Positions 1 to 34,093 of a stretch of DNA of 39,875 nucleotides are shown one piece after another. The stretch covers positions 1-39,875 of the forward strand of contig JAYVYM010000227.1 of assembly GCA_043784245.1 (NCBI GenBank), in the 5' to 3' direction. The notes under the pieces were generated by a model. That model was not told the DNA's origin, did no database searches, and worked only from the letters and a program-made list of their open reading frames with translations. Position 1 is the stretch's first letter, and each line of letters begins with the position of its first letter. The stretch is from Frankiales bacterium (lineage in GTDB: Bacteria > Actinomycetota > Actinomycetes > Mycobacteriales > SCTD01). A program made the position numbers and the translations under genes.

Positions 1-587
1 CGGGTGTCGAGGTGCAGGGTGACGCCGGTCGCCAGCAGCCGGTCGATCTCGATGTCGAGGACATCCCGGGGCAGCCTGAAGGTGGGGATGCCGAACCGCA
101 TCATCCCGCCCGGCTGGCTCCCTGCCTCGTGGATCTCGACGGCATGGCCGAGCAGGCGCAGGTGGTAGGCAGCCGACAGTCCCGACGGCCCGGCACCGAC
201 GACGAGGACCCGCTTGCCGGTTGCCGGTCCGGCGGCTGGCAGCTGCCAGCCCTGCCTGATCGCCTCGTCGCCGAGGAAGCGCTCCACCGAGTTGATTCCG
301 ACTGCGCTGTCGAGCTCCGCGCGGTTACAGGCGGTCTCGCAGGGGTGGTAACAGACCCGTCCCATGACGGCTGGGAACGGGTTGTCCTTCACCAGCCGCC
401 GCCATGCGGTCTCGTAGCTGCCGTCCTCAGCGGAGTACAGCCAGCCCTGGATCTGCTCGCCTGCCGGGCAGGCGTGGTTGCACGGCGGCAGACCGTCGAC
501 GTACACGGGGCGCTCACTGCGCCAGGAGCCGGTGTGATTTGCCAGGCTGGACCGGACGTCCAGCGTGATGGCGAAGGGCTTATCCAT
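1..587 (-). CDS. GltD-like NAD(P)H-dependent Fe-S flavoprotein oxidoreductase (N-terminal part; 3' end runs off the window)
   Basis: My own reverse-complement translation from ATG 587..585 gives MDKPFAITLDVRSSLANHTGSWRSERPVYVDGLPPCNHACPAGEQIQGW...GRVCYHPCETACNR...GKRVLVVGAGPSGLSAAYHLRLLGH. It has Cys clusters plus a GxGxxG dinucleotide fold, as in the glutamate-synthase small-subunit family. The ATG lies 2 nt after the porB stop. It is absent from the ORF track because no stop falls inside the window. Confidence 0.75.
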   Translation of the reverse strand, partial: MDKPFAITLDVRSSLANHTGSWRSERPVYVDGLPPCNHACPAGEQIQGWLYSAEDGSYETAWRRLVKDNPFPAVMGRVCYHPCETACNRAELDSAVGINSVERFLGDEAIRQGWQLPAAGPATGKRVLVVGAGPSGLSAAYHLRLLGHAVEIHEAGSQPGGMMRFGIPTFRLPRDVLDIEIDRLLATGVTLHLDT

Positions 588-589
588 CG

Positions 590-1591
590 TCAACGCACCT
601 CTTCGGGGAGCAGGTCGTACCGGGCGATGTTGCGGTCGGCAAGCGCCTGCAGCCGGCCGAGCACGGCGGTGTCCGGCGGGTCGCCGAACAGGTGCGCGAA
701 CCGCCGTTGCGGCCTCAGGTAGTCCTCGACGGGAACGCGTCCCCGGATCGGCAGGGTGGCGGTGACCTCGCCGTGCTCGGCCTCGAACACCGGGAAGAGC
801 CCGCTGCGCTGGGCCAGCCGCGCGAGCCGGACCGTGTCGGCGGGAGCCGAGCCCCAGCCCAGCGGACAGGGCACGAGGACGTGCAGGTAGCGGGCGCCGC
901 GCAGGGACATCGCCCTGTCGACCTTGGCCTCGAGGTCGTGCAGCTCCGCGACGGTCGCGGTGGCTACATACGGGATCTCGTGTGCCATCGCGATGCGCGG
1001 CATGTCCTTGCCAGTAGCGAACCGGTTGCCCGGGTGCGGGCCGACCGCCTCCGTCGTGGCCGTCCGGGCAGCCGGTGGGGTCGCCCCCGAACGCTGGACC
1101 CCGGTGTTCATGTACGCCTGGTTGTCGTAGCAGACGTAGAGGACGTCGTCGTCGCGCTCGAACATGCCGGACAGTGCGGCCAAACCGATGTCGACGGTGG
1201 CTCCGTCACCGCCCTGGGCGAGCACGCGGATGTCGTCCTGTCCGGAGGCCTTCAACGCGGCGGCGACGCCGGCGGCGACCGAGGGTGCATTGGCGAACAG
1301 CGAGTGCAGCCACGGCAGCTGCCACGAGCTCTCCGGGTAGGGCGTCGAGAAGACCTCCAGGCACCCCGTGGCGTTGACAGCGATGAGCTTGCCCTTGGCG
1401 GCCCGGAACGCCGCATCCACGACGTAGCGCGCCCCCAGTGCCTCGCCGCAGCCCTGGCAGGCCCGATGGCCGGAGTTGAGGGTGTTCTGTCGGTCGGGGC
1501 TCGCTTGACCGGTGCGCAGCGACTCCTCCAGCAGCCGGTTCCCGACCGCTCTGCTGCCGATCTGATAAAACTTCACGCCCTCGGCCACCAC
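590..1591 (-). CDS. porB: 2-oxoacid (pyruvate):ferredoxin oxidoreductase beta subunit (TPP-binding)
   Basis: 333-aa ORF with CQGCGE near the N-terminus, the GGDGATVDIG TPP motif and YDNQAYMNTG. GTG start at 1591 is preceded by a GAGGTGG RBS, 9 nt after the porA stop. Confidence 0.9.
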   Translation of the reverse strand: MVAEGVKFYQIGSRAVGNRLLEESLRTGQASPDRQNTLNSGHRACQGCGEALGARYVVDAAFRAAKGKLIAVNATGCLEVFSTPYPESSWQLPWLHSLFANAPSVAAGVAAALKASGQDDIRVLAQGGDGATVDIGLAALSGMFERDDDVLYVCYDNQAYMNTGVQRSGATPPAARTATTEAVGPHPGNRFATGKDMPRIAMAHEIPYVATATVAELHDLEAKVDRAMSLRGARYLHVLVPCPLGWGSAPADTVRLARLAQRSGLFPVFEAEHGEVTATLPIRGRVPVEDYLRPQRRFAHLFGDPPDTAVLGRLQALADRNIARYDLLPEEVR

Positions 1592-1600
1592 AGCGCCACC

Positions 1601-3425: not shown

Positions 3426-3429
3426 TGGC

Positions 3430-4440
3430 TCAGCCCTGCTGCGCGACGAGCCGGGTCAGGTCCACCAGGCGCGCGGTGTAGCCCCACTCGTTGTCGTACC
3501 AGCCGAAGACCTTGACCAGCCTGCCGGCGGCCTGGGTCAGCTCGGAGTCGAAGACGCAGGAGGCCGAGTCGCCGATCACGTCGCTGGAGACGACGGGCTC
3601 GGTGGTGTAGCGCAACCGACCGGCCAGCGGCCCCGCGGTCCCGGCCGCCTGGAACGCATCGTTCACGGCCGCCACGGTGGCCTCCTTGTCCATCAGCACC
3701 GCGAGGTCGACCAGCGAACCGTCGACGACCGGCACCCGCAGCGCGACACCGTCCAGCCGGCCCTTCATCGCCGGGATCACCTCACCGACGGCCCGGGCAG
3801 CACCGGTGGTCGTAGGGATGATGTTCACCGCCGCGGAACGGGCCCGACGCGGGTCCTTGTGCGGCCCGTCCAGCAGGTTCTGGTCGCTGGTGTAGGCGTG
3901 CACGGTGGTCATGTAGCCCTGTTCGATGCCGAAGCTGTCGAGCAGCACCTTCACCATCGGCGCGACGCAGTTCGTCGTACACGACGCATTCGAGATGATG
4001 TGGTGTCGCGCCGCGTCGTAGGTCTCGTCGTTGACCCCCATCACGATCGTGGTGTCGACGCCCTTACCCGGGGAGGACAGCAGCACCTTGGACGCGCCGG
4101 TAGCCAGGTGCGCTGCCGCCGCCTCGCGGGTGCGGAACCGGCCCGTCGACTCGATGACGATCTGCGCGCCGTGGTCGCGCCAGGCCAGCTTCGCCGGGTC
4201 ACGCTCGGAGCTGACAGCGATCTTGTGCCCGTCCACGGCGATCGCGTCACCAAGGTCCTCGACGGTGCGGTGCAAGGGCCCGAAGGTGCTGTCGTTGCGG
4301 AGGAGCCGGGCCATCGTGGCGGAGTCGGTGACGTCGTTGATGGCCACCACCTGCAGGTCGGTGTCCTGGGCGGCCAGGAGGTACCGCAGGTAGTCCCGGC
4401 CGATCCGACCGAACCCGTTGATGCCGATGTTGACGCTCAT
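3430..4440 (-). CDS. gap: Type I glyceraldehyde-3-phosphate dehydrogenase
   Basis: MSVNIGINGFGRIGRDYLR (NAD fold), catalytic SNASCTTNC, and the WYDNEWGY C-terminal motif. A GGGAGA RBS lies upstream of ATG 4440. Confidence 0.95.
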   Translation of the reverse strand: MSVNIGINGFGRIGRDYLRYLLAAQDTDLQVVAINDVTDSATMARLLRNDSTFGPLHRTVEDLGDAIAVDGHKIAVSSERDPAKLAWRDHGAQIVIESTGRFRTREAAAAHLATGASKVLLSSPGKGVDTTIVMGVNDETYDAARHHIISNASCTTNCVAPMVKVLLDSFGIEQGYMTTVHAYTSDQNLLDGPHKDPRRARSAAVNIIPTTTGAARAVGEVIPAMKGRLDGVALRVPVVDGSLVDLAVLMDKEATVAAVNDAFQAAGTAGPLAGRLRYTTEPVVSSDVIGDSASCVFDSELTQAAGRLVKVFGWYDNEWGYTARLVDLTRLVAQQG

Positions 4441-4540: not shown

Positions 4541-4589
4541 AGGGCCGAAGGTCACCTCGTGTGGCTCAACGTTGGTGACCTTCGACCCT
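4541..4589. promoter_or_regulatory. Large inverted repeat (16-nt arms, 17-nt spacer) in the gap/ppsA divergent intergenic region
   Basis: AGGGCCGAAGGTCACC (4541..4556), tcgtgtggctcaacgtt, GGTGACCTTCGACCCT (4574..4589). 15 of 16 positions are complementary. The mismatch is C.A on the plus transcript but G.U on the minus transcript. Confidence 0.5.
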
Positions 4590-4649: not shown

Positions 4650-6962
4650 ATGCACGCGATCGCATGGTTCCAGGACCTGGGCGTTGGCAACGCCGAGCTC
4701 GCGGGTGGTAAGGGTGCCAACCTCGGTGAGTTGACTGCGGCCGGTCTGCCGGTGCCGGCAGGTTTCGTCGTGACCAGCGAGGCCTACCTCGGTGCGATCG
4801 AGGCCTCCGATGCCCGGGAGAAGCTGCAAGCGACGCTGCTCGGTCTGGACGCAGACGACGACGATGCACTCACCGCGGCCTCCGAACTGGCCTGCTCGCT
4901 CGTGCGCTCAACCCCGATTCCCGCCGACCTGGCGCAGGAGATCGCGGACGCCTACCAGCACCTGGGGAACCGCGTCCGGGTGGCAGTCCGCTCCTCGGGA
5001 ACGAGCGAGGACGCCGGCGACACCTCCTTCGCGGGCATGAACGCAACTTTCACCAACGTCGCGGGCGGGGCGGACCTGCTTGCCCGCATCGTCGACTGTT
5101 GGGCGTCGCTGTACGGCAAGCGCGTGATGTCCTACCGGGCGGCGACGAACCTCGCCGAGGAGCCCACCCTGGCCGTCGTGGTCCAGTCGATGATCCCGTC
5201 GGAACGGTCCGGAATCATGTTCACCGCCGACCCGTCGGACGGTGACACAGGGCGCATCGTCATCGAGGCGGTCCTCGGACAGGGCGAGGCGATCGTGAGC
5301 GGGATGGTGGAACCCGACACCTACCTCGTACCCAAGGAGCCGCTGCGCGTTTCCAGTGTCCGCGTCGGCCACCAGTCGGCCAAGATTGTCCGCGGGGCTG
5401 ATGGCGCAGACGAGACGGTCGCCCTCACGCCGGCCGAGGGTGCGCTGCGCATCCTCACCGACGAGGAGATTCTCGAGATCGCCCGGCTCGGTATCGCCGT
5501 CGAGCAGCACTACGGCCGGCCACAGGACATCGAGTGGGCGCGAGCCGGCGGCAAGACCTGGCTGGTGCAGTCCCGTCCGATCACGACCCTGCCCCGGCCC
5601 GACGCGCAGCCGCAGGAGGGCAAGGTGCTGGTGCGAGGGCTCGCCGCGTCGACCGGTCGCGCGTCCGGTCGGGTCCGGGTGCTGCGCTCCCCCGAGGAGG
5701 GCGTTCAGCTGCAGACCGGCGAGGTGCTGGTCGCGCCGATGACCAGCCCCGACTGGGTCCCGGCCATGCGGCGGGCAGCGGCGCTGGTCACCGACGGCGG
5801 TGGCATCACCTGTCACGCCGCGATCATCTCGCGTGAGCTCGGTGTGCCCTGTGTCGTCGGCACCCGCACCGCCACCACGTCCCTGCGGGACGGCGAGCTC
5901 GTGACGGTTGACGGGCGCGCCGGCGTCGTGCTCGAGGGAGTGGTGGCCAAGGCTGCCGAACCCGTCCCGGTGGCCCCGAGCAGCGCATCGACCGGCGAGC
6001 CCCTCGCGACGACGGTGTACCTGAACCTCGCTGTTGCCGAGCACGCCGAGCAGGTAGCGGCCCTGGACGTCGACGGGGTGGGTCTGCTGCGCGCTGAATT
6101 CATGGTCGCGGACGCACTCAAGGGCGTGCACCCGCGGCTGCTCCTGCAGCGCGGCGAGCAACAGACCTTTGTCGACGCGATGACCGGGCCGCTGCTGCGC
6201 ATCGCCCGAGCGTTCATGCCACGCCCGGTCGTGTACCGCAGCATCGACTTCCGCTCCAACGAGTTCCGTGGGCTGGAAGGTGGCGAGCAGTTCGAGCCGC
6301 ACGAGGAGAACCCGATGATCGGGTACCGCGGGTGCTACCGCTATATCAATCAGCCCGACCTGTTCCGGCTCGAGCTCGACGTGCTGGGCGGCGTGGACGC
6401 ACAGACCCACAACCTTCGTCTGATGATCCCGTTCGTCCGGACCGCCTGGGAGCTGGAGCGCTGCCTGGAGATCATCAATGCTCATCCCACAGCTTCCACC
6501 CTGCCTGTGTGGGTGATGGCCGAGGTGCCGTCCGTGGCGTACTGGATCCCGACGTACGCCCGGATGGGCATCGTGGGGGTGTCCATCGGTAGTAACGACC
6601 TCACTCAGCTGGTGCTCGGCGTGGACCGCGACTCAGAGGTGTGTGCCGAGTTGTTCGACGAGTCCGACCCTGCCGTCCTGGATGCCATTGCCCGGATCGT
6701 GCACGCCTGCCAGGGCGCCGGCATCACGTCGTCGCTCTGCGGTCAGGCTCCGTCCAATCGGCCGGAATTCGCCGAATACCTCGTACAGCTGGGGATCACC
6801 TCGGTCTCGGTCAACCCGGACGCCGTCGGCAAGGTCCGACGCTCGATCGCCAGCGCTGAACGAGGTGTCCTGCTCGCAGGGGTCCAGCCAGAGCGCAAGG
6901 CGGGAACCCAGCTGCGCCCCCGAATCAGCGCGCATAACGCACGTCCAATGCTGCATGAGTAA
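4650..6962 (+). CDS. ppsA: Phosphoenolpyruvate synthase (pyruvate, water dikinase)
   Basis: N-terminal [13 protein letters not shown]-grasp motif, phosphohistidine swivel [21 protein letters not shown], and C-terminal PEP-utilizer domain ([14 protein letters not shown]). ATG 4650 has an AGGAGG RBS 6 nt upstream. The track start at 4572 lies inside the inverted repeat. Confidence 0.92.
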
Positions 6963-6974: not shown

Positions 6975-9284
6975 ATGACCAGGCAACTCCGACTTCCGGT
7001 GGGTCGCCAGGTGCTGGTCTTCCTGGGCTCGGCGGTGCTGTTGCTTGTCGGCGCCGCAGCGTGGCTGCTGGACGCGGCCACGTTCGCAAGCGTCTCGTGG
7101 AGCGCCGGCACCGTGCTCGGTCTGATGCTGTCGACCTGGTGGACTGTCGCGGCGTTGCGCCGGCGCGAGCCAAGCGTCGATGTGATCGCCCTGCTGGCCC
7201 TTGCTGGTGCGCTGGCAGTGGGCGAGCCATTCGCTGGCGCCGTGATCACTGTGATGCTGGCAAGTGGACAGCTGCTGGAGGCCCGGGCGGCGGCGCGGGC
7301 CCGCCGCGAGTTGAGCCTGCTGGTCGAAAGAGCCCCGCGCACGGCGCGCCGCCGCGTCGGCGACGTCGTCGTCGAGATTGCTGTGGGTGACGTCAGTCCC
7401 GGCGACCTGCTGCTCGTGGGCGCCGGCGAGATCGTGCCGGTCGACGGACGACTGCTGTGCTCGGCCGTGCTGGACGAGTCGGCGCTGACGGGGGAGGCAA
7501 GGCCGAAGGAGAGGACCGCCGGTGATGAGGTCCGCAGTGGCGGGATCAACACCGGCCAGCCCGTCGAGTTGGTCGCGACGGCGACGGCTGAGGGGTCGAC
7601 GTACGAAGGCGTGGTGCGTCTCGTCGCGCAGGCACAGGCCACGTCGGCGCCGTTTGTCAGAGTGGCCGATCGGTTCGCCACCTTGTTCGTCCCGCTCACG
7701 ATGGCTGTCGCGGGCGCCGCCTGGGCGCTCAGCTCCGATCCGGTTCGAGCGGTCGCCGTGCTTGTCGTCGCGACACCCTGCCCGCTGCTGCTCGCCGCCC
7801 CGATTGCGATCATGTCCGGCCTGTCCCGCGCCGCCCGTGTCGGCGTCGTGATCAAAGGCGGCGGCGCGCTGGAGCAGCTGGCCGCCGGCCGGGTGATCCT
7901 GTTCGACAAGACCGGCACGCTGACCCAGGGACGCCCGGTGCTCGCCAGCATCGTGACTGCACCCGACCAGAGCTCTGCTGATGAGTTGCTCCGGCTTGCA
8001 GCGTCGCTCGACCAGGTCTCGGCCCACGTCCTCGCGAATGCCATCGTGACGGCCGGCACCCGACGGGGCCTGTCCCTGGAGATGCCCGAAGACGTGAAGG
8101 AGGTGCACGGGTACGGACTTGAAGGATCAGTGGGGGGTCACCGCGTGCGGCTGGGCAAAGCGGCCTGGATCGTGGGTGCGGATGCCCCACTCTGGGTGCT
8201 TCAGGTTCGACGCCGCGCGGAGCTTGATGGCTCGCTCATCGTCTTCGCTGCTGTCGACGACGAGGCGGCGGGCGCGCTGCTGTTGGAAGACACCGTCCGG
8301 CCCGAGGCGCCGCGCATGATCCGCGCTTTGCGGTCTGCAGGCATCAGGCGCGTTGTCCTGTTGACCGGTGACCGGGCAGACAGTGCCGAGACCATCGGGC
8401 GCATCGTCGGCGTCGACGAGGTTCTGTCGGACTGCGACCCCGCCGACAAGCTCGCCGCGATCAGGCGTGAGTCCGCGGCGGCCCCCACCATCATGGTCGG
8501 TGACGGCATCAACGATGCGCCCGCGCTGGCGGCAGCCGGAGCCGGCGTCGCGTTGGCCGCACGGGGTGCGACGGCGTCGTCGGAGGCCGCTGACGTCGTG
8601 CTGACCGTCGACCGGATTGACGCCCTGGCGGAGGCGATCCTGATCGCCCGGCGCTCCAAGGCCATCGCGCTGCAGGCGGTCGTGGTCGGCATGGGGCTCT
8701 CGCTGGCGGCCATGGTCGCCGCGGCTCTCGGGTTTCTGCAGCCGGCGGCAGGTGCGGTGACGCAGGAGGTCATTGACGTACTGGCGATCGGCCTCGCCCT
8801 GCGCGCGGTGCTGCCCGGTGCTGCACACTCCATCGCCATGTCGCCGCAGGACGAGGCGACGGCCCGCACCCTGCGTGCAGAGCACGACGCGGTTCTGCCC
8901 ACCGTCGAGCGGATCCGCTCTGTGGCTGACGCGCTGTCCGACCCCCGCTGTGACCTTGCGCCGGTGCAGAGGCTGTTGACGCAGCTGCAGACCGAGTTGC
9001 TGCCGCATGAGAAGACGGAGGAGGCACTCCTCGTTCCGCTGGTGGCCCGAGCACTCGGAGGAACCGACGCCACGGCAGCCCTGAGTCGCACCCACGCCGA
9101 GATCGAGCATCAGGTCAGCCGCCTGCGACGATTGCTCCAGGACCTGCACGGGGACAGCATCGCCGAGGAAGACCTGACAGACCTCCGCCGCCTGCTGTAC
9201 GGGCTGTACGGGGTGCTCAGGCTGCACAACGCACTCGAGGAGGAAGGCGCCTTCAGCCTCGTCCCGAGTGCCGCCTCGACATGA
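6975..9284 (+). CDS. P1B-5-type heavy-metal P-type ATPase with C-terminal hemerythrin-like domain
   Basis: LFDKTGTLT phosphorylation motif, VGDGINDAPAL hinge, and TM motif VVATPCPLLLAAP (PCP rather than CPC). There is no N-terminal HMA domain. The ~150-aa C-terminus carries His/Glu motifs (LRAEH, LLPHEKTEE, THAEIEH, LRLHNALEEEGAF) typical of hemerythrin-like cation-binding domains. Confidence 0.85.
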   Translation: MTRQLRLPVGRQVLVFLGSAVLLLVGAAAWLLDAATFASVSWSAGTVLGLMLSTWWTVAALRRREPSVDVIALLALAGALAVGEPFAGAVITVMLASGQLLEARAAARARRELSLLVERAPRTARRRVGDVVVEIAVGDVSPGDLLLVGAGEIVPVDGRLLCSAVLDESALTGEARPKERTAGDEVRSGGINTGQPVELVATATAEGSTYEGVVRLVAQAQATSAPFVRVADRFATLFVPLTMAVAGAAWALSSDPVRAVAVLVVATPCPLLLAAPIAIMSGLSRAARVGVVIKGGGALEQLAAGRVILFDKTGTLTQGRPVLASIVTAPDQSSADELLRLAASLDQVSAHVLANAIVTAGTRRGLSLEMPEDVKEVHGYGLEGSVGGHRVRLGKAAWIVGADAPLWVLQVRRRAELDGSLIVFAAVDDEAAGALLLEDTVRPEAPRMIRALRSAGIRRVVLLTGDRADSAETIGRIVGVDEVLSDCDPADKLAAIRRESAAAPTIMVGDGINDAPALAAAGAGVALAARGATASSEAADVVLTVDRIDALAEAILIARRSKAIALQAVVVGMGLSLAAMVAAALGFLQPAAGAVTQEVIDVLAIGLALRAVLPGAAHSIAMSPQDEATARTLRAEHDAVLPTVERIRSVADALSDPRCDLAPVQRLLTQLQTELLPHEKTEEALLVPLVARALGGTDATAALSRTHAEIEHQVSRLRRLLQDLHGDSIAEEDLTDLRRLLYGLYGVLRLHNALEEEGAFSLVPSAAST

Positions 9285-13629: not shown

Positions 13630-13649
13630 GTGGCCCGGCCACCGCGGGT

Positions 13650-13796
13650 TCAGCTGACACCGCACAGGTAGGGGCGAGTGTGTGGCAGGGCCACGATGTC
13701 GTCGCCGACGGTCACCAACCGTCGGTTGCCGCGCGGGTCGCACTCGAAGTGCGAGAGCAGGCGCGGCGGCCGGGCGCGTCCCTGGTCATTCGTCAT
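13650..13796 (-). CDS. Hypothetical 48-aa protein upstream of ftsH
   Basis: ATG 13796 is preceded by GGAGG (4-nt spacer). Product: MTNDQGRARPPRLLSHFECDPRGNRRLVTVGDDIVALPHTRPYLCGVS. About 41 of 47 codons end in G/C by eye, versus roughly half in the overlapping ftsH-frame extension. I recognise no homolog. Confidence 0.35.
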   Translation of the reverse strand: MTNDQGRARPPRLLSHFECDPRGNRRLVTVGDDIVALPHTRPYLCGVS

Positions 13797-21635: not shown

Positions 21636-21791
21636 GGTGTGCTCCTTCACCAGGACGTTCTTCGTGCCAGTGCCCTCCTGGCAGGGACCAGGATGGCTGG
21701 GGCGCGTGTGCTCACCTAGAGGCGAAGGTCCCTGATCGACGGGCGCAGCCTGCGTGGAGTCCTACAGATGGCGGAAGGTCGAGCAGCGCGA

Positions 21792-23659: not shown

Positions 23660-23943
23660 GTGGACGAACACAGAACTGGCACAGGCGCCTCCGACAGGGA
23701 GATCACAGACGTGCCCGGTGGTGAGCGACGCGCTCACGAGCACGCGGCGTAGACAGCGTCCTCGGTCCGGGCCGGCTGTTGTCCAGCCACGGCGACCGTA
23801 CGCCCGCCGCGACTCCGGCGTCGTGGCGCGCCCCCACGGGGCACCTGCGCCGTGCTGCGCGACTCGTTGCCCGGCCTTGGCGCGTCGCCGAGAGCCCGCA
23901 TCGGGTTTCCCGTGGACGGTCCGGCGGACCCCGGGTGACGCCG

Positions 23944-24681: not shown

Positions 24682-25472
24682 ATCTGCGCCGGGCCCGACG
24701 CCTCGGCCAGCCGCAGAAACGCCTGCTCGAGGTCTGCGCTGCCGGTGCGACTGAGCAGCGCGGGCACGGTGTCGTCAGCCACCAGGCGTCCGGCGCGTAG
24801 CAGGAGCAGCCGGTCGCAGCGCGCCGCCTCGTCCATGACGTGGCTGCTGACCAGCAGGGTCCGGCCGGCGCTGGCCAGCCGCGCGAACATCGCCCACAGG
24901 TCGCGGCGCAGCACCGGGTCCAGCCCGACGGTCGGCTCGTCCAGGACGAGCAGCTCGGGCTCTCCCAGCAGGGCGGTCGCCAGAGACACCCTGGCCCGCT
25001 GACCGCCGGACAGGGTGGCGACGAGCTGCTCGGCCACATCGTCCAGGGCGACCTCGGCGAGGACGGCGACGACGCGGTGTCGGCCGGCGCCAACCATGTC
25101 GGCGAAGTAGCAGAGGTTCTCGCGCACTGACAGGTCGGCGTACACGGCCGGGCTCTGGGTGACGTACCCGACCCGCCGGCGCAGCGCCGGCGTCCCTGCG
25201 GGAGCGCCGAGCACCTCGAGTCGACCGCGCACCCCGGCCTGCACCCCGACAACTGCACGCAGCAGCGTGCTCTTGCCACCACCGCTCGGCCCGACCAGGC
25301 CGGTCACGGCGCCGGCCCGGACCTCGCACGACAAGCCGGCCAGCACATCGCGCCGGCCGCGCCGGACAGACAGGTCCCCGACCACCACGGCGGCCGCCGC
25401 GGCTGGTCGCACGGCCGCCGGCGGTTCGCGTCGCGTAGCCCCCGTACCCGGCAACCGGGCACCGGGACTCAT
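24678..25472 (-). CDS. ABC transporter ATP-binding protein (DrrA-like)
   Basis: Walker A GPSGGGKST, signature LSGGQRARV, Walker B LLVLDEPTVGLD, H-loop SSHVM. I chose ATG 25472. The longest ORF begins at GTG 25610. Confidence 0.85.
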   Translation of the reverse strand: MSPGARLPGTGATRREPPAAVRPAAAAAVVVGDLSVRRGRRDVLAGLSCEVRAGAVTGLVGPSGGGKSTLLRAVVGVQAGVRGRLEVLGAPAGTPALRRRVGYVTQSPAVYADLSVRENLCYFADMVGAGRHRVVAVLAEVALDDVAEQLVATLSGGQRARVSLATALLGEPELLVLDEPTVGLDPVLRRDLWAMFARLASAGRTLLVSSHVMDEAARCDRLLLLRAGRLVADDTVPALLSRTGSADLEQAFLRLAEASGPAQM

Positions 25473-25945
25473 GCCGTCGCCGTCAGCGGTCCGGCTCCTC
25501 CGGCGGCCGGTCTCGGGGGACCCACGGGGACCGGTGTGGGCTGAAGTGCTCCAGGACGGCGGCGATACGTTCCACCTCGTCCTGTGATCGGACTGGCGCC
25601 GAGCGGACACCGGGCCTGTCCTGTCGGGTGACGGTCACGGGTGTCTGACGCGGTGCGGGGCACCGCAGACATGGGCGGCGGGCATATGGGGCTCCGGTGA
25701 AGCACGAGGATCCCTGGCTCCCCGGCTGCGAGCGTTGCGCTCAGGAACGACGGCGCACGGTGCGCGGCGGTCCCGACCCGGGTCGGCTGTGATGTTCAGC
25801 CACGTGACCGTACGCCCGGTTGCACGCGGTGCACAGCCCCGGAGCGGGTCGGGCACACCTCGGAAGCAGGCCGCTCCGGCCGACGGACCGCACAATGGTT
25901 ATGCGGGCGCCGGTGCGGTGTGGCTCCCCGGACCTGGAGGTTGCC

Positions 25946-26716
25946 GTGGATGAGGACCTGACGGTGAGCCTGACCGGCCTGTCCGGGCTGCTGACCGACC
26001 ACCGACCGCTGGGCGACACGCTGATCGAGGTCGCGCAGTTCGCCGTAGACGCCATCCCGGGGGCCGACGGCGCGGGACTGACGATGCTCGAGGACGACCG
26101 GGCACAGACCGTGGTGTCCACCTCCGAGTTCGTGCACGCCGTCGACGATGTCCAGTACGGGCTGGGAGAGGGACCGTGCCTGAAGGCGGTTGCCTCGGGT
26201 GTCACGCAGACCTCCGGCTCGCTCGGCGGGGACCCACGTTGGCCGCACTTCGGTCCGCGGATCGGCCGGATGGGCGTGCACAGCGTCCTCTCGCTCCCGC
26301 TGCTGCTGCCCGGACCGGCAGCGGACGACCGGGTCATCGGCGCGATGAACGTGTATGCCCGTGCCAAGAACGCTTTCGGTCCCGACGCGATACGGATCGG
26401 CGAGCTGTTTGCCCGTCCCGCCGCGGTGTCGGTGCACAACGCCCAGGTCCTGGCGCAGTCCCAGCGTCTCGCCGCTCAGCTTGCGGAGGCGCTGCACAGC
26501 CGGGCAGTCATCGACCAGGCGCTCGGCGTACTGATGAGTCGCAGCGGCGCCACGCCACAGGAGGCGTTCGACCGGCTCCGCACCATGAGCCAGACCCAAC
26601 ACGTCAAGGTGGCCGAGGTCGCGCGGGTGCTGGTGGACGAGGCCGTCCGCCGGGCCCGCAGCCGACAGCCGGCCCCCGGGCAGGCGGGTCCGGGCGCAGC
26701 GCACCCGGCGTCGTGA
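25946..26716 (+). CDS. GAF domain plus ANTAR domain RNA-binding regulator
   Basis: The N-terminal GAF-like region (GLGEGPCL, VLSLPL...IGAMNVY) is followed by ANTAR (AVIDQALGVLMSRSGATPQEAFDRLRTMSQTQHVKVAEVARVLV). GTG 25946 has a GGAGG RBS 5 nt upstream. ATG 25895 is an alternative. Confidence 0.8.
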   Translation: MDEDLTVSLTGLSGLLTDHRPLGDTLIEVAQFAVDAIPGADGAGLTMLEDDRAQTVVSTSEFVHAVDDVQYGLGEGPCLKAVASGVTQTSGSLGGDPRWPHFGPRIGRMGVHSVLSLPLLLPGPAADDRVIGAMNVYARAKNAFGPDAIRIGELFARPAAVSVHNAQVLAQSQRLAAQLAEALHSRAVIDQALGVLMSRSGATPQEAFDRLRTMSQTQHVKVAEVARVLVDEAVRRARSRQPAPGQAGPGAAHPAS

Positions 26717-26733: not shown

Positions 26734-26869
26734 TAGGCGACCGTGAAGGCGGCCGTGGAGGCGTAGCGTGCAGTTGCGGATCGGAAGGCATCCGCCGCTC
26801 GTACGGCGCGCCAGGCTGGAGTGCGACAACCCGCCCCAGCGCCCCGGGCAGCCTTCGACCCGGGCCCCG

Positions 26870-26922
26870 GTCCCTGCCGGTGCCTCCCGGCCTGCCGCGA
26901 TGTCTGCGCGGCCGGCAGGGAC
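26870..26922 (+). promoter_or_regulatory. Extended hairpin in the leader of the second ANTAR gene
   Basis: GTCCCTGCCGG (26870..26880) pairs perfectly with CCGGCAGGGAC (26912..26922). An inner GCCGCG/CGCGGC stem encloses a loop that contains ATG 26900. Confidence 0.35.
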
Positions 26923-26959
26923 GGGTCCTCGTGATCCGCGCCGGTCAGGAGTCCAGCCT

Positions 26960-27580
26960 GTGGACCTGGCGACAGTGCTCGCAGCGCACCTGCAGACCTT
27001 CGACGCTCGCCCCGAGCATGTCAGGGGCCAGCCCGAGGCCGCACACGACATGACGGACTTCGCCGCGGGGCTCTCGAGCCTGCTGGGTGCCCTGCGCATC
27101 GGGGTCCCGTCCTGCCTGGCGGTGTCGATCCTGGACAGCCGACCGGCCGGCAACCTCACGATCACCGCCCCCGCAGCCGGCAGCTCATCGACGGTCGAGC
27201 CGGCCGTACGCGCCTCCCTGGCGGTGCGCCTGGCTGTCCCCGCACGCCCGGGGATGCTGCTGCTGCTGCAGGCTGCCGCCCCTGGGGCCTTCGTCGGGCT
27301 GGCCGGGGAGCTGGCGGGTCAGCTCGACAACGGCCGGGCGGCACTGCTGATGGATCGGCATCTCGTCCTGCGGCCGGACCCGGAAGGACAGCGGCTCGCG
27401 GTCGACCTGGCCGACCTGCGGGCAGTCGAGCAGGCGGTCGGCGCGCTGATCGGGCAGGGCCGACTGCCGGTGGTTGCCCGCCAGGAGCTGCTGGACCGGG
27501 CAGTGGAGGCGGAGCTGACCGTGCCGGCGCTGGCTCGGCAGTTCTTGGCGGCGTTGGCCTACCGGGCCCGTCCGGATTGA
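26960..27580 (+). CDS. ANTAR domain protein with divergent N-terminal sensor region
   Basis: The C-terminus LADLRAVEQAVGALIGQGRLPVVARQELLDRAVEAELTVPALARQFLAAL resembles ANTAR. GTG 26960 has an AGGAG RBS 8 nt upstream. G/C content at third codon positions rises sharply at this point. The track start at 26768 is probably too long. Confidence 0.6.
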   Translation: MDLATVLAAHLQTFDARPEHVRGQPEAAHDMTDFAAGLSSLLGALRIGVPSCLAVSILDSRPAGNLTITAPAAGSSSTVEPAVRASLAVRLAVPARPGMLLLLQAAAPGAFVGLAGELAGQLDNGRAALLMDRHLVLRPDPEGQRLAVDLADLRAVEQAVGALIGQGRLPVVARQELLDRAVEAELTVPALARQFLAALAYRARPD

Positions 27581-29186: not shown

Positions 29187-31832
29187 ATGACGACCGCGGC
29201 GCCCGCCCGCCCGGACCGATCCCTCACCGGCATCGTCGATGGCGCCAGCCTGACAGCTGACGAAGTACTCGCGGCCCTGGGCGTCAGTACCCACGGACTC
29301 AGCGGTCGTGACGTCGCGGAACGGCAGGCGCGATGGGGACCTAACGCGGTGGCCTCACACCACGCGCGGGTGCTGCCGGTGCTCTGGCACCAGTTGCGCT
29401 CGCCCTTGCTCGGCCTGCTGCTGATAGCCGCGGTGGCGTCGTACGCCGCCGGTGAGCGCAGCGCGGCGGTGATCATCGGGGTGATTGTCGCGCTGTCCGT
29501 GGGGCTGGGGTTCGTCAACGAGTACCGCGCCGAGAAGGCCGCCGAGGCGCTGCACTCCTCCATCAGCCACGAGGTCGTGGTCGTTCGCGACGGGGCTCCG
29601 GTGGCGGTGGACGTCACGACGCTGGTCCCCGGTGACCTCGTCGAGCTCCAGCTCGGCAACATCGTGCCGGCCGACCTGCGGCTGCTCCAGGTTGCCGGGC
29701 TCGAGTGCGACGAGTCGGTCCTGACCGGTGAGTCGCTGCCCGTCGCCAAGGACGTGGAGCCGGTGCCCGCGAGGACGGCGCTCGCCGAGCTGACCGGGTG
29801 CGCGCTGATGGGGACCGTCGTGCACAGCGGCAGCGGCAGCGGGGTCGTCGTGACCACCGGGGCCCGGACCGAGTTCGGGAAGATCGCCGCCGGACTCGAC
29901 ACCCACCCTCTGGACACCGAGTTCCAGGTCGGGCTGCGGCGGTTCTCGATGCTGCTGGTGTACGTGGGTGGCGCCCTCACGTCCGCGATCTTCTTGATCA
30001 ATGTGGTGCTGCACAAGCCGGTCCTGGACGCCCTGCTGTTCTCTCTCGCGATCGCCGTCGGCATCACGCCGCAGCTGCTACCGGCGGTGGTGTCCACCAG
30101 CCTGGCCGCGGGCTCCCGGCGGATGCGGCAACGCAAGGTGCTGGTCAAGCGGCTGGTCTGCATCGAGGACCTCGGCGACGTCGACGTGCTGTTCACCGAC
30201 AAGACCGGCACGTTGACGGTCGGCCGAATTGACTTCACCCGCGCCACAGCCACTGGTAGCGACCCTGAGGACTCGGCTGCTGTGCTGCGCTGGGGGTTGC
30301 TCAGCACCGAGAACGCGAGTGGCCCGGCCGGTCATGGCGTCGGTGGTAACCCGCTCGACCAGGCCCTGTGGCTGGCCCCGGCAGCCAGTCGCGAGCACGA
30401 GGCTCTGTCGGCGTACACCAGGCTGGGGGTGCTGCCCTTCGACCACGACCGCGCGATGGTCTCGGTCCTGGTGCGCGACGCGGCCGGGCAGCTGACCCTG
30501 GTCACCAAGGGCGCCCCGGAGAATGTGCTCGAGCGCTGCCTCGACGTGCCGGCCGGCGCCCGCACGGAGCTCGCGGCCCAGTTCGCAGCCGGCAACCGGG
30601 TTGTCGCCGTCGCGACCCGATCGGTCGCCGATCCTCGCGCTCCCTGCGCAGCCGATGAGCAAGGCCTGCACCTGCAGGGACTGCTGGTGTTCCTGGATCC
30701 GCCGAAGACCGACGCCGCTCAGGCGTTGCGCCGGCTCGCCGAGCTGGGGATCTCGGTGAAGGTCGTCACCGGCGACAACCCGGCGGTCGCCGTCAAGGTA
30801 TGCGCCGACCTGGGGCTGGGGGTGGGCGAAGCCGCGCTGACCGGGGCCGATCTGGACGAGCTCGACGACACCCGGCTCGCCGCCGAGATCGCCCGAACCA
30901 CGGTGTTCGCCCGGGTGACTCCCGAGCACAAGGCGCGCATTGTCGCCGTCCAGCGCCGGACCGGTGGCGGTGTCGCGTTCCTCGGCGACGGCGTCAACGA
31001 TGCGCTCGCGCTGCATGCGGCCGACGTCGGGATCTCGGTCGACACCGCCACCGATGTCGCGAAAGACGCCGCCGACGTGATCCTGCTGGAGACGGACCTG
31101 GATGTGCTCGCCGACGGGGTCGTCGAGGGCCGCCGGATCTTCGCCAACACCATCAAGTACGTGCTGATGGGCACCTCGAGCAACTTCGGCAACATGTTCT
31201 CCGCCGCCGGCGCCTCGCTGTTCCTCAGCTTCCTGCCGATGCTGCCGTCGCAAATCCTGCTCAACAACCTGCTGTACGACACCAGCCAGCTCGCCATTCC
31301 GACCGACAACGTCGATGCGGCGCAGCTTCGCAAGCCCTCGCACTGGGACATTGCGTTCATCCGCAGGTTCATGCTGTACTTCGGTCCGCTCAGCTCGGTG
31401 TTCGACTTCGTGACCTTCGGCGTCATGCTGTACGTGTTCCACTCCGGCCCGGCGCAGTTTCGCTCCGGCTGGTTCGTCGAGTCGCTCGCCACCCAGACGC
31501 TGGTGATCTTCGCGATCCGGACTCGGCGGATCCCGTTCTTCCGCAGCCACCCGAGCCTGCCGTTGACGCTGTCCGCACTGGCCGTCGTCATCGTCGGTGC
31601 GTTGCTGCCGGCCACCCCGCTGGCGCACACCCTGGGCTTCCAGCCCTTGCCAGTGGCCTTTTTCGCCGCGCTGGCCGGGATGGTCGTCTGCTACCTCGCG
31701 CTGATCGAAGGTGGCAAGCGGCTGTTCTACGGCGCGGCTGCGGGTCCTGCCCCGACCCGGCGCGCGTACAGCCGACGCCGGCATCTGCGTCGCCGAGCTG
31801 CCTACTTCAGTACCGGCGCACCGGCCGCATAG
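29187..31832 (+). CDS. mgtA: Magnesium-translocating P-type ATPase (P3B, MgtA-type)
   Basis: [61 protein letters not shown], and the MgtA-specific IKYVLMGTSSNFGNMFS...FLPMLPSQILLNNLLYDTSQLAIPTDNVD. I chose ATG 29187. The track start at 28974 overlaps the upstream gene. Confidence 0.9.
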   Translation: MTTAAPARPDRSLTGIVDGASLTADEVLAALGVSTHGLSGRDVAERQARWGPNAVASHHARVLPVLWHQLRSPLLGLLLIAAVASYAAGERSAAVIIGVIVALSVGLGFVNEYRAEKAAEALHSSISHEVVVVRDGAPVAVDVTTLVPGDLVELQLGNIVPADLRLLQVAGLECDESVLTGESLPVAKDVEPVPARTALAELTGCALMGTVVHSGSGSGVVVTTGARTEFGKIAAGLDTHPLDTEFQVGLRRFSMLLVYVGGALTSAIFLINVVLHKPVLDALLFSLAIAVGITPQLLPAVVSTSLAAGSRRMRQRKVLVKRLVCIEDLGDVDVLFTDKTGTLTVGRIDFTRATATGSDPEDSAAVLRWGLLSTENASGPAGHGVGGNPLDQALWLAPAASREHEALSAYTRLGVLPFDHDRAMVSVLVRDAAGQLTLVTKGAPENVLERCLDVPAGARTELAAQFAAGNRVVAVATRSVADPRAPCAADEQGLHLQGLLVFLDPPKTDAAQALRRLAELGISVKVVTGDNPAVAVKVCADLGLGVGEAALTGADLDELDDTRLAAEIARTTVFARVTPEHKARIVAVQRRTGGGVAFLGDGVNDALALHAADVGISVDTATDVAKDAADVILLETDLDVLADGVVEGRRIFANTIKYVLMGTSSNFGNMFSAAGASLFLSFLPMLPSQILLNNLLYDTSQLAIPTDNVDAAQLRKPSHWDIAFIRRFMLYFGPLSSVFDFVTFGVMLYVFHSGPAQFRSGWFVESLATQTLVIFAIRTRRIPFFRSHPSLPLTLSALAVVIVGALLPATPLAHTLGFQPLPVAFFAALAGMVVCYLALIEGGKRLFYGAAAGPAPTRRAYSRRRHLRRRAAYFSTGAPAA

Positions 31833-32055
31833 TTGACAGCAGCCGCGGTTACCCGCAAGGTGAGCCGGCTGGGATCATCAGCTGGTCCGTGACGGTGGCG
31901 CTGCGCAAGTCGCGCCGCCGCGAGCGAGTCGCTCGGTGTCGGACGCGAATGGCGACAACGATCCGGTCTGCGTATTCCTGCGGCCGGTGTATCCATTGCC
32001 TGCGGGCGGGCCAGCGGCAGCAGCCGGGATGCCCACGCGCCATTCAGGAGGTCTT

Positions 32056-32235
32056 GTGATCGATCAGTTGTGGGGACCCGTTTTCAACCTGGTCGGTGAC
32101 GGGGGCTACCGCGCGTTGACCTTCGGCGACTGGTTCGTCATGAAGTACTCCAATGTCGTCATGTTCGTCGTCGTCGCGGCAGTGTTTGTCATTGGCGCGT
32201 TCGTCAACCTCCCCGGGAGCGAGGTGGAGCAGTGA
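32056..32235 (+). CDS. Small single-pass membrane protein (59 aa), first gene of the cytochrome b-like operon
   Basis: GTG 32056 has an AGGAGG RBS 4 nt upstream. Product: VIDQLWGPVFNLVGDGGYRALTFGDWFVMKYSNVVMFVVVAAVFVIGAFVNLPGSEVEQ. The stop overlaps the next gene's start (GTGA). Confidence 0.5.
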   Translation: MIDQLWGPVFNLVGDGGYRALTFGDWFVMKYSNVVMFVVVAAVFVIGAFVNLPGSEVEQ

Positions 32236-33011
32236 GCTCGGACGTGCGCGCTGCGGACTCGGTGACCGCGGTCGACGGGCGCGAGGCGTTCTCCTGGACG
32301 ACGCCGTCGCCGTGGGCGCGCAGCCTGCTGGTGCGCAACCTTCCGCTGCGGCGACTGCTCCCGGACCGGGAGCCCTCTTATGTCTCCTCGATGCTGTACA
32401 CGATGGGTGTCCTGACGCTGGGGTCGCTGCTCGTCGTCATCGTCAGTGGGGTCGTCCTCGCGGTGGGTGGCGTGCAGTGGTGGCACACCAGCACCCTCGG
32501 CGCGAGTGTCAACAGCGTCCACTTCTGGGGTGTCCAGGCCTTCTTCCTTTTCATGGCGGTGCACGCCTTGGCCAGCTACTTCACGATGGCGTGGCGCGGT
32601 GGCCGGGGCTTCACCTGGGTCACCGGGGTGCTGGCCTTCCTGCTCTCTGTCGTCACGTCCTTCACGGGTTTCCTGATGATGACCAACTGGGACGGCCAGT
32701 ATGTGGCGCAGCAGGCCAAGGACGCCTTCAACGCCATGGGTATCGGCGCCATCTGGAACGTCATGGACGTCGGCCAGCAGTTCACCCTGCATGTTGTCGT
32801 GACCTCCGGCCTGCTCGGCTTCATCGTGCTCATCCATCTTGGCCAGATCCGCCGCCGTGGGGTCGCCCCGCCGCCCGGGGCCGAGTACCTGGAGGTCGCG
32901 GACGACACTCCTGCGGTGCGGCTAGACACGACGGCCCCGGTAGCCGCGCAGGGGGTCCCTGCGCAGCCGACCGGGTCGCAGCCGGTGACGGTCCCGGGCG
33001 GCTCGCGATGA
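32232..33011 (+). CDS. Cytochrome b/b6 N-terminal-domain protein (di-haem, 4 TM)
   Basis: The helix B-like segment SVHFWGVQAFFLFMAVH has H-x13-H. TWVTGVLAFLLSVVTSFTGF is conserved. The helix D-like segment LHVVVTSGLLGFIVLIH has H-x14-H (b6/Firmicute-type spacing). GTG start is preceded by GAGGTGGAG. Confidence 0.8.
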   Translation: MSSDVRAADSVTAVDGREAFSWTTPSPWARSLLVRNLPLRRLLPDREPSYVSSMLYTMGVLTLGSLLVVIVSGVVLAVGGVQWWHTSTLGASVNSVHFWGVQAFFLFMAVHALASYFTMAWRGGRGFTWVTGVLAFLLSVVTSFTGFLMMTNWDGQYVAQQAKDAFNAMGIGAIWNVMDVGQQFTLHVVVTSGLLGFIVLIHLGQIRRRGVAPPPGAEYLEVADDTPAVRLDTTAPVAAQGVPAQPTGSQPVTVPGGSR

Positions 33012-34093
33012 CGCGCCTGCGCAGACACCCGCTGCGGCACTGGACCGGTCCCGAGCGGAAGTACGACCTGCTGTTCGAGGGCACCGTCGCCGTGCTGGTC
33101 GTCGCGGTCCTGGTCGTGACCGCCTCGATCCTGTTCGGTTCGCCGAACGGCGGCCTGCAGTACCCCGGGGGCCCCCCGTCCACGCCGGGAGCCGCGTTCA
33201 CCGCGCAGTACTGGGTCACCTCGCCGACCACGGACGACAAGGGTGTCAGCGACCCGAACGGTGGCGCGATGGACTTCGCCGCCACCGTGGTCACCGAGCT
33301 CGACGGGTCCTCGGCCACTGCGACCTACGGGCCGCCGTTCAACACGACCGCCGGCGCCTCACAGCACATCGGTCGGGTGTCGCTGGCCGGCATCGCGCAC
33401 AGCCTGTTCGGCCTGACACAGCCGATCAACACCGCCAGCGATTTCGTGCTGGCGCCGCTCGGTCGCACCGTCGCCCCCTATGACCCGGCGGTGGCTGACG
33501 CGCTGACGCAGTACCAGGCTGCCGGGGGGAGCGTGGCGGGCGGTGTCGCCGCCGATGCGCTGGTCTCCGACCAGCAGGCGACCTGGCTCAAGACCTATAC
33601 CGACGCCCTCGGCAAGGGGTCGGTCGACAACGCGAAGATCGACGTGGCGCCCGGCGACTACGGTCCGGTCGCGACGCTCGTCCAGGCTGAGCTGACGATG
33701 GCGCGGAACGGCTCGCTGGACGGCTTTCTGAGCAGCAGCGGTACGCAGATCACGACCAACCCGTACAAGGCCACGATGTTCTACAGCGACGGAAACGTCT
33801 GGAGCACGGTTGCGGCGGGCCAGGGCCTGACCGGCGACCAGTGGGGCGTCATGAACGAGCTGTGGAACTACCCGGGCCAGTTCTGGCTGATCCTGTACGC
33901 CATCCCGTACCACATCCCGTTGATCGTTGGCTCTGCGGCGGCCGACCTGTGGGTGGGCACCCTTATTGTCATCGTCGGCATGCTGTTGCAGCTTGCGCTG
34001 CCCTGGATCCCCGGCCTGCGCGACATCCCGCGGCTCGTGCCGTTCTACAAGGTGATTTATCGCAAGTACTACCGGGCCGCCAAGCAGCGCTGA
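33008..34093 (+). CDS. Membrane protein, possibly cytochrome b C-terminal/subunit IV-like, with a large extracytoplasmic insertion
   Basis: The ATG overlaps the upstream stop (ATGA). N-terminal TM (KYDLLFEGTVAVLVVAVLVV), a ~270-aa Cys-free soluble region, then TMs beginning NYPGQFWLILYAIPYHIP (position and pattern reminiscent of PEWYF...IP). The track ORF 32153..34093 is real only over its last 361 aa. Confidence 0.7.
   Translation: MTRLRRHPLRHWTGPERKYDLLFEGTVAVLVVAVLVVTASILFGSPNGGLQYPGGPPSTPGAAFTAQYWVTSPTTDDKGVSDPNGGAMDFAATVVTELDGSSATATYGPPFNTTAGASQHIGRVSLAGIAHSLFGLTQPINTASDFVLAPLGRTVAPYDPAVADALTQYQAAGGSVAGGVAADALVSDQQATWLKTYTDALGKGSVDNAKIDVAPGDYGPVATLVQAELTMARNGSLDGFLSSSGTQITTNPYKATMFYSDGNVWSTVAAGQGLTGDQWGVMNELWNYPGQFWLILYAIPYHIPLIVGSAAADLWVGTLIVIVGMLLQLALPWIPGLRDIPRLVPFYKVIYRKYYRAAKQR

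Follow-up and report, generated by a model that had tools for sequence, protein, structure and literature searches.

A block of P-type ATPase, FtsH and fermentation genes in a Frankiales genome as a probable arm of a DevR-type low-oxygen regulon

Contig JAYVYM010000227.1 of a Frankiales bacterium (assembly GCA_043784245.1), analysed here over its whole length of 39,875 nucleotides and called the window, carries four P-type ATPases together with an FtsH protease paralogue, an SPFH protein, and genes for 2-oxoacid:ferredoxin oxidoreductase (OFOR), phosphoenolpyruvate (PEP) synthase, GAPDH and the arginine deiminase (ADI) pathway. Most of this block is probably a lineage-specific cargo arm of a DevR/DosR (OsdR)-type low-oxygen or redox dormancy regulon. 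The DosR/DevR regulon is central to mycobacterial persistence, and its described cargo consists mainly of universal stress proteins (USPs), nitroreductases and storage-lipid genes. The regulatory principle is already known. What is new is the cargo and its recurrence across the order, namely four pump subtypes, the FtsH paralogue, the SPFH protein and an OFOR-PpsA-GAPDH-ADI module. What we infer from the genes and their promoters is binding by DevR, a signal of hypoxia and the roles in physiology. A wider proposal, quite possible and put forward tentatively, is that the P1B-5/hemerythrin, P2, MgtA and CtpE-like pumps, the FtsH paralogue and the SPFH protein form a conserved, previously undescribed "membrane and ion arm" of an order-wide DevR regulon, moving horizontally with the OFOR-PpsA-GAPDH-ADI module.

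Proposed scheme

A DevS-like GAF histidine kinase and a NarL-type regulator, encoded elsewhere in a box-preceded acg-devS-devR operon, would control the block. The regulator is predicted to bind 16-bp palindromic boxes with a consensus of about AGGGNCGWWNGNCCCT. Three units of the window would be switched on: (i) the gap-OFOR-gltD-like operon, divergent from ppsA and the P1B-5/hemerythrin pump gene, (ii) the ftsH paralogue with the CtpE-like pump gene, and (iii) an alcohol dehydrogenase (ADH) remnant with the P2 pump, arcABC and a GNAT gene. As respiration fails, ATP would be drawn from arginine and from fermentation of pyruvate or other 2-oxoacids, and reducing power would be handled via ferredoxin/NADPH. 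The ATP-driven pumps would take over from ion homeostasis driven by the proton-motive force, and a dedicated FtsH, perhaps with the SPFH protein, would maintain membrane proteins.

If true, this scheme places the P1B-5 hemerythrin pump in a low-oxygen programme and points to a specialised FtsH for pump quality control in dormancy. It provides a testable picture of how aerobes of soil or water, obligate or facultative, protect their ion gradients and membrane proteins during a collapse of the proton-motive force. P1B-5 hemerythrin pumps would gain a physiological setting from it too, whether their sensing role concerns O2/redox or iron.

The window is the longest contig (C227) of a metagenome-assembled genome (MAG; G000, 2.3 Mb in 367 contigs, 73% complete). 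Two independent assemblies in public archives, 81.7 and 116 kb long, show the same gene order, so that an artefact of assembly can be dismissed. Gene identities were taken from Pfam and NCBIfam scans of the called genes, with scores compared to model cut-offs, and orthologues of seven genes were mapped across 151 genomes of the same order. In what follows, G001 is a genome of the same genus, other G numbers are relatives, and L052 is a stretch of a MAG labelled Acidimicrobiaceae.

The tight junctions between genes show that the block amounts to four or five transcription units and not to 25 separate genes. For example, the ftsH stop codon abuts the ATG of the next pump gene (TAGATG), and the P2 pump gene stops 33 nt before the start of arcA. 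The arcA-arcB and arcB-arcC gaps are 45 and 1 nt, and arcC overlaps the GNAT gene. Only 12 nt separate ppsA from the P1B-5 pump gene; gap, the OFOR genes and the gltD-like gene are packed together on the opposite strand to that pair.

Palindromic boxes at promoters

Footprinting of the window against G001 revealed two conserved intergenic elements, and similar elements occur at the equivalent promoters of L052 and G002. All share the layout of the Streptomyces coelicolor OsdR consensus AGGGCCGATCGGCCCT and of the Mycobacterium tuberculosis Dev box (PMC5069765). The core GGGNC-N4-GNCCC, fixed a priori, was tested in sister islands of other genera, 390 kb in all. It gave 52 matches, 25 of them within the 13.7% of the sequence that is non-coding (binomial p=2.8e-9), while six spacing or orientation controls gave 13-27 matches and no non-coding enrichment. 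A position weight matrix (PWM) was made from the sister-island sites, with none from the window or G001. Its top four matches in the 39.9-kb window all fall in promoter regions, which account for about 6% of that DNA.

The best of the four, AGGGTCTTTGGACCCG at 13863..13878 (16.6 bits), lies 120 nt upstream of the ftsH start. It is identical in G001 and is the third-best PWM match in the entire MAG. Two inverted boxes with centres 33 bp apart occupy the divergent gap/ppsA promoter (4541..4589): AGGGCCGAAGGTCACC at 4541 (PWM 10.0) and GGTGACCTTCGACCCT at 4574 (PWM 10.9), the latter nearest ppsA. The box at 4541 is conserved in G001 and agrees with the OsdR consensus at 11 of 16 positions (PMC5069765); that at 4574 is missing in G001, which is also without ppsA. 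The top MAG-wide match of an independent matrix derived from L052 and G002 is at this promoter. The remaining box, AGAGGCGAAGGTCCCT at 21718..21733 (PWM 10.2, third-best in the window), stands before both the ADH remnant and the P2-arcABC-GNAT string. A homologous ADH gene in G139 has a 20.5-bit box at -77, and the P2-arcABC operon may now make use of the box retained by the window's ADH pseudogene.

Exact boxes occur at orthologous promoters in other families. Island genes that stand behind boxes include those for GAPDH (5 genomes), the P2 pump (4), PpsA (3), ADH (2) and the P1B-5 hemerythrin pump (1). Box-preceded GAPDH homologues were seen in G025, G104, G152 and G001, and the FtsH paralogue is box-preceded in the window and in G001. 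An M. tuberculosis-style pattern, GGGACN4GTCCC with up to two mismatches, was tried and set aside, since its 41 matches against 60 expected represent no enrichment. A promoter and terminator consensus scan of the window was uninformative.

Connection with canonical DevR-regulon genes

The same boxes elsewhere mark genes typical of DevR regulons. In the MAG, 6 of the 11 PWM matches of at least 14 bits are non-coding, against a baseline of 16%. Next to the best non-coding boxes are genes for two Acg-family FMN oxidoreductases (NF047509, scoring 295 and 244 bits), for USPs and for a GNAT/ADP-forming acetyl-CoA synthetase. Canonical regulon genes behind a box are found on contigs C119, C68 and C234 of the MAG and on C40 and C57 of G001. 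For a stringent palindrome, GGGWCNWWNGWCCC, the complete genome of G001 has 7 sites compared with one for the control, and these stand in front of two USP tandems, an Acg gene, a cydAB-like operon and the ftsH paralogue. Among the genes that directly follow a box in the sister islands, 9 encode USPs and 4 encode nitroreductases; others encode an HSP20 (HspX-like) protein, a WS/DGAT (Tgs-like) protein, a protein of the PNPOx fold, a flavodoxin and a DevS-like kinase (GAF-HisKA_3).

The candidate regulators are themselves preceded by a box. On G001:C10 an operon of acg, a devS-like gene and a NarL-type regulator gene is complete behind its box (kinase 40% identical to a G139 kinase; response regulator of 215 aa). 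On G000:C119 the MAG's strongest box (17.2 bits) is followed by acg and a devS-like gene before the operon is cut by the contig end. The DevS-like kinases have a GAF-GAF-HisKA_3 architecture.

Two further box-preceded loci were noticed. A 914-943-aa fusion of GNAT and ADP-forming acetyl-CoA synthetase domains (G000 C68:9132-11963 and, as L148, G001 C40:7367-10111) has two DevR-type boxes in front of it and is divergent from acg-USP; in combination with OFOR, such an enzyme would yield substrate-level ATP from pyruvate. Also on L148, a cydAB-like pair (11190-13907; CydB-like N-terminus read by eye) stands behind a 17.5-bit box, and a high-affinity oxidase may belong to the same regulon.

The locus L147 (G001:C57:1-10117) is a second pump cluster of the genus. 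Its genes for a histidine kinase and a NarL regulator are followed by a box and then by two P-type ATPase genes (863 and 939 aa), after which come two strong boxes (17.9 and 18.8 bits) and a USP tandem. It bears on an alternative in which the boxes are real and another NarL/LuxR regulator, either this C57 pair or one of the nitrate/nitrite type, reads them, with a signal other than oxygen limitation sensed by DevS. Such a regulator would have company, since G001 encodes about 15 GerE-type regulators, and the half-sites of the genus (GGGTC/GACCC, GTGAC) depart from the GGGAC of M. tuberculosis. We nevertheless regard this alternative as unlikely: the MAG's strongest box precedes acg-devS, the canonical DevR gene set stands behind the same box, and the kinases have the DevS-like domain order.

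Linkage and recurrence in relatives

The sequence-only reading had proposed that the genes are a co-regulated island and not a random collection, an idea that scattering in relatives would have spoken against. Scattering was not what the relatives showed. The G001 block is colinear with that of the window and its proteins are 79-97% identical (60% for one unannotated open reading frame (ORF)), with ppsA and arcB absent and other genes in place of the ABC transporters. Besides L052, a further MAG, at least 8 other families of the order have the same gene families in shuffled combinations. Clustering exceeds chance, since many unrelated genomes bring these families together and two genes would lie within 30 kb of each other in a 5-Mb genome in only about 1% of cases.

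The mosaics differ in composition. In G048 the GltD-like and OFOR genes, divergent from ppsA, share 45 kb with genes for a P2 pump, GNAT, GAPDH and the FtsH paralogue, and G025 has MgtA, P2, GAPDH, OFOR/PpsA and ADH within 30 kb. MgtA, SPFH, GAPDH, the FtsH paralogue and the P1B-5 hemerythrin pump (P1B-Hr) share a single 20-kb contig in G123; SPFH, MgtA, GAPDH and P1B-Hr lie within 12 kb in G104. The cluster of G152 comprises P2, PpsA, arcABC, the FtsH paralogue and GAPDH, that of G139 comprises P1B-Hr, SPFH, ADH, P2 and GAF-ANTAR, and partial versions were found in G009, G082, G090, G028 and G051. L052 holds the CtpE-like (g08), P1B-Hr and P2 pumps with PpsA, OFOR and the GltD-like protein in 15 kb. 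Certain pairings are frequent: PpsA is within 15 kb of the P2 pump in 4 of the 5 genomes holding both, SPFH adjoins MgtA or P1B-Hr in G123, G104 and G139, and in 4 other genomes a P2 or MgtA pump lies no more than 25 kb from an FtsH paralogue.

Each gene is patchy across the 151 genomes (range 6-43): P1B-Hr is present in 24, the CtpE-like pump in 43, MgtA in 26, P2 in 19, PpsA in 10, OFOR-alpha in 6 and the FtsH paralogue in 15. P1B-Hr similarity is not in step with taxonomy, at 75% to a homologue in another family and 51% to one in the same family. The window genes are accessory and were probably exchanged horizontally. The same patchiness and identities, the losses and ABC gene swap within the genus, a transposase nearby in one assembly and the imperfection of three of the four window boxes are what one would expect if stress genes had simply piled up in a flexible, exchanged region with no common regulation and with boxes arising by chance. 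This explanation appears very unlikely, and the least probable of those considered here, given that the top PWM matches are confined to the small promoter fraction of the window, that the boxes at 13863 and 4541 are kept in G001, that orthologous promoters in other families have exact boxes, and that the sister-island enrichment (p~3e-9) is accompanied by flat controls.

One coupling did not hold. An ftsH/g08 (CtpE-like) pair as a conserved unit was rejected, the coupling being seen only in this genus and an ftsH-paralogue match being near g08 at 0 of 8 g08 loci examined outside it. Beyond L052, g08 and P1B-Hr were on one stretch in none of 11 further genomes holding both; G013 pairs g08 with MgtA.

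Several points weigh against assigning the block to a DevR-type regulon. The exact core is matched in the window only by the box at 13863, and those at 4541, 4574 and 21718 each have one core mismatch and score 10-11 bits. No box was found upstream of the GAF-ANTAR/SPFH/YflT/MgtA/cytochrome-b unit in G000 or G001, and the G035 cluster (P1B-Hr, MgtA, PpsA) has no exact boxes. MAG-wide, 17% of matches to the generic core are non-coding against a 13% baseline, which is equal to the controls. A PWM of published S. coelicolor OsdR sites picks out one non-coding site in the window, that at 4541; the main component of this PWM is a GCCG..CGGC core unused in this lineage. The sites of our own PWM were picked by the a-priori pattern. 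Similar boxes might in truth answer to the kinase/NarL pair beside pumps on G001:C57. Gene calls, made from third-position GC (GC3), are approximate, and related genomes are non-independent samples, the recurrences nonetheless spanning at least 8 families.

What was anticipated from the sequence thus survives in part. A shared promoter motif, suggested earlier, exists at three promoter regions and is lacking at the GAF-ANTAR/SPFH/MgtA unit. Likewise, a co-regulated hypoxia island agrees with the linkage and with the DevR-type signature of three of the four or five units, and leaves the MgtA/SPFH unit unexplained. The expected USP or DevR-like genes just outside the window did not appear, either on its contig or in the 10 kb past its left end.

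Comparison with known systems

The closest published parallel is the hypoxia cluster msmeg_3926-3955 of Mycobacterium smegmatis (Berney & Cook 2010, PMC2799521), a chromosomal cluster beside DevRS that is induced at low oxygen and contains a P-type ATPase and PEP synthase. In that organism PEP synthase is up 70-fold in hypoxia, among the most induced proteins (bioRxiv 10.1101/2023.09.11.557286). The likeness consists of the pump and PEP synthase. In contrast to msmeg_3926-3955, the window has four pump subtypes, the FtsH paralogue, SPFH, OFOR with a GltD-like protein, a GAPDH copy and arcABC, and its contig is without USP, Acg, hydrogenase and devRS genes.

The DevR/DosR-DevS/DosT regulon of M. 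tuberculosis includes ctpF (PMC9180918) and Rv1997, and resembles the present system in its P2-type pump and in the 5-4-5 layout of palindromic boxes upstream of its units, of which one of the window's four is exact. The genus studied here also has a GAF-GAF-HisKA_3 kinase, a NarL-type regulator and an Acg-family gene in a box-preceded operon. The half-sites differ, being GGGTC, GGGCC and GTGAC here and GGGAC in M. tuberculosis. ADI, OFOR, PpsA, MgtA, P1B-5 and FtsH2 cargo is not listed for the DosR or OsdR regulons in the papers cited here, and is not known from the M. tuberculosis regulon.

In S. coelicolor the OsdK/OsdR region spans SCO0167-SCO0219 (Urem et al. 2016, PMC5069765). OsdR binds the intergenic region between USP and pyruvate-phosphate-dikinase (PPDK) genes, and its regulon includes a Zn-ADH, PNPOx, a nitroreductase and a hemerythrin protein; the published table has no pumps, FtsH, ADI, GAPDH or OFOR (PMC5069765). 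The central bases of the box also differ, GAAG/TTTG here and GATC for OsdR.

P1B-5 ATPases with a hemerythrin-like domain have been described from Acidothermus cellulolyticus and Sinorhizobium meliloti (Nia), and the window pump shares their TPCP and DKTGT motifs and hemerythrin ligands (PMC9388753). The review leaves open whether the hemerythrin domain senses O2 or Fe (PMC9388753). What distinguishes the pumps of the window, G002, G104, G123, G139 and G090 is their context in a DevR-box island.

In enterobacteria, HflK/HflC form a complex with FtsH, and the turnover of MgtA and MgtC is FtsH-dependent. The window likewise encodes SPFH, FtsH and MgtA close together. It differs in that its SPFH protein scores below the HflK/HflC cut-offs and is in a different operon from ftsH. 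An SPFH-FtsH-MgtA proteolysis link is purely hypothetical.

Genes of the three box-preceded units

Pfam and NCBIfam matches and motifs bear out the earlier picture of four P-type ATPases (P1B-5/hemerythrin, P2, MgtA and one further), which are present and intact at or near the positions first assigned to them, with an ftsH-like protease and an SPFH gene among them. OFOR, PpsA with a GAPDH copy, and arcABC were also rightly recognised. The predicted hemerythrin domain is real; of the plural GAF-ANTAR regulators, one gene is supported and the next ORF has no ANTAR match. Catalytic motifs are kept in all four pumps and in FtsH.

On the minus strand, a type I GAPDH gene (3430..4440; TIGR01534, 416 bits against a cut-off of 367) heads the gap-OFOR-gltD-like operon. 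It is followed by OFOR gamma (2826-3425; POR), alpha (1601-2842; POR_N and PFOR_II) and beta (590-1591; TPP_enzyme_C) and by the N-terminal 197 aa of a GltD-like NAD(P)H flavoprotein that runs off the contig (3..593; Fer4_20/NAD_binding_8; NF009410, 300 bits). The full-length GltD-like protein has 544 aa and C-terminal 4Fe-4S ferredoxin domains (L152:11005-12639); the "delta/ferredoxin" module of OFOR may therefore be fused to this flavoprotein.

PEP synthase PpsA (4650..6962, plus strand; 770 aa; TIGR01418, 770 bits against 740) precedes the P1B-Hr gene (6975..9284, plus strand; E1-E2_ATPase, Hydrolase and Hemerythrin; TIGR01525, 485 bits). The pump is a P1B-5-type heavy-metal ATPase with TPCP at residue 267, DKTGT at 311 and a C-terminal Hemerythrin domain (PF01814) at residues 631-762. 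An N-terminal HMA domain was not found in it with Pfam. When the genome contigs were scanned with a P1B-Hr alignment, about 7 of 80 loci were true orthologues and the rest reflected generic P-type ATPase motifs. TPCP, DKTGT and the hemerythrin His/Glu ligands are invariant in 7 orthologues. A P1B-Hr homologue at G090:C3:901122-906233, is divergent from a P2 pump gene 184 bp away and has 6 in-frame stops (4 TGA, 2 TAG); it is probably a pseudogene.

The FtsH gene (11704..13743, minus strand) encodes AAA and M41 protease domains with a GAPGTGKT Walker A motif and HEAGH (TIGR01241, 672 against 600). It is a paralogue, because a second FtsH, 46% identical, is encoded on contig C132 of the MAG. The adjoining pump, g08 (9253..11703, minus strand; Pfam; DKTGT, PEGL), was earlier called CtpE-like. 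No NCBIfam subfamily model scored above cut-off for it. Orthologues about 50% identical occur in 11 of 11 genomes of one family of the order, a spread compatible with CtpE only if that family is Mycobacteriaceae, as it may be.

The P2-type cation ATPase (SERCA/PMR1-like, CtpF-like; 18008..20830, minus strand) has Cation_ATPase_N/C and E1-E2_ATPase domains. Its best NCBIfam models are below cut-off (TIGR01522, 524 vs 798; TIGR01116, 457 vs 703), and its orthologues align from about residue 6 of a 940-aa form. Next, on the same strand, are arcA (16725-17975; NF002381, 491 against 414), arcB (15636-16679; TIGR00658, 393 against 281) and arcC (14651-15634; NF009008, 401 against 361). A GNAT (Pat-like) acetyltransferase gene ends the operon (13960..14712; Acetyltransf_1; NF058543, 102 bits, below cut-off). 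No amino-acid permease that could be the arginine/ornithine antiporter ArcD was found among the window ORFs scanned; unlike the window, G152 has a permease directly before arcA. Upstream of the P2 gene is a decayed zinc-ADH gene (21131..21644, minus strand), recognised by tblastn with the box-driven ADH of G139. Two frames are needed to align residues 251-378 of that protein; residues about 73-250 have no counterpart, and the N-terminal part has left a faint trace. The remnant is a pseudogene with an internal deletion and a frameshift.

In G152:C47 8000-28000 (L139), a 5.2-kb segment with a P2 pump, a PpsA fragment and boxes occurs twice in tandem with identical scores. It is either a true duplication or an assembly repeat.

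The GAF-ANTAR, SPFH and MgtA unit

The plus-strand genes from 25946 to 34093 form a unit that accompanies the same islands in other genomes. It begins with a GAF-ANTAR RNA-binding regulator (25946..26716; ANTAR 67 bits, GAF_2) and a hypothetical protein (26768..27580) with no Pfam or NCBIfam match and a 60%-identical homologue in G001. An SPFH/Band-7 protein (27618-28613; Band_7 132 bits) and a YflT-domain stress protein (28634-29155; YflT 68 bits) follow. The SPFH protein is below the HflK/HflC cut-offs (72 vs 159 for TIGR01933, 63.5 vs 134 for TIGR01932) and is a generic SPFH protein. Then come the MgtA-type Mg2+ P-type ATPase (P3B; 29187..31832; TIGR01524, 750 bits against a cut-off of 611, exactly 610.75) and a cytochrome-b-like operon (32056..34093). 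The latter encodes a small transmembrane protein, a cytochrome-b N-domain protein (32232-33011; Cytochrom_B_N_2, 35.9 against 27) and a 361-aa protein of no assigned family. Cytochrome-b-like homologues in G002 and G028 are box-preceded.

In this genus the GAF-ANTAR-SPFH-YflT-MgtA-cytochrome-b unit is probably under separate control, perhaps that of the ANTAR protein. Contig C310 of G000 (1782-3538) bears another GAF-ANTAR gene and, divergent from it, another SPFH gene, with identities of 62% and up to 92%, which suggests that the ANTAR and SPFH proteins belong together. The SPFH match there is split across three frames and is frameshifted or misassembled. Upstream of the GAF-ANTAR gene, at 25770-25790, is a palindrome-bearing element, GGTCCCGAyCCGGGTyGGCTGT, that is conserved in G001. 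It does not fit the spacing of the DevR box; a similar GGGACCCGGGTCGG lies at 21552.

The flanking DNA brings in ions as well. In the 81.7-kb assembly an M-box Mg2+ riboswitch (RF00380, 138.6 bits; L152:15409-15574) lies about 4 kb past the window's left end, within the 1.5-kb leader of an Nramp gene, with a Na+/H+ exchanger gene after it and a haem peroxidase gene before it. Because of these neighbours, a cation-stress reading stays alive for part of the block. In its full form it would make the whole block a cation-homeostasis island under metal or Mg2+ control, not oxygen, with the metabolic genes as bystanders. Four pumps in one window, an MgtA unit lacking a DevR-type box, and a hemerythrin domain whose ligand may be iron and not O2 (PMC9388753) all fit such an island. 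We consider it improbable as an account of the whole. Rfam gave no match on the window, neither an M-box or other riboswitch nor an ANTAR-type family, whereas the boxes at three promoters are of the DevR/OsdR type that elsewhere marks USP, Acg, HspX and Tgs genes. Moreover, OFOR, PpsA, GAPDH and arcABC travel with the pumps across families, for which ion stress alone offers no explanation. A DevR-type regulon for most of the block, with the MgtA unit apart, is preferred.

Other features and mobility

Between the P2-arc operon and the GAF-ANTAR gene are two ABC-2 type transporter pairs, each a permease and an ATPase (21792..25610, minus strand; ABC2_membrane, ABC_tran). The GC content of the window ranges from 0.67 to 0.74 compared with a genome mean of 0.72, and nothing is compositionally foreign; repeats within it are paralogous pump motifs only. 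A classical mobile island was considered and rejected, as there is no GC deviation and no integrase or tRNA. In one assembly a DDE transposase gene (L153:20931-21002) starts about 10 kb left of the window end, and it is the sole mobile-element gene seen near the block.

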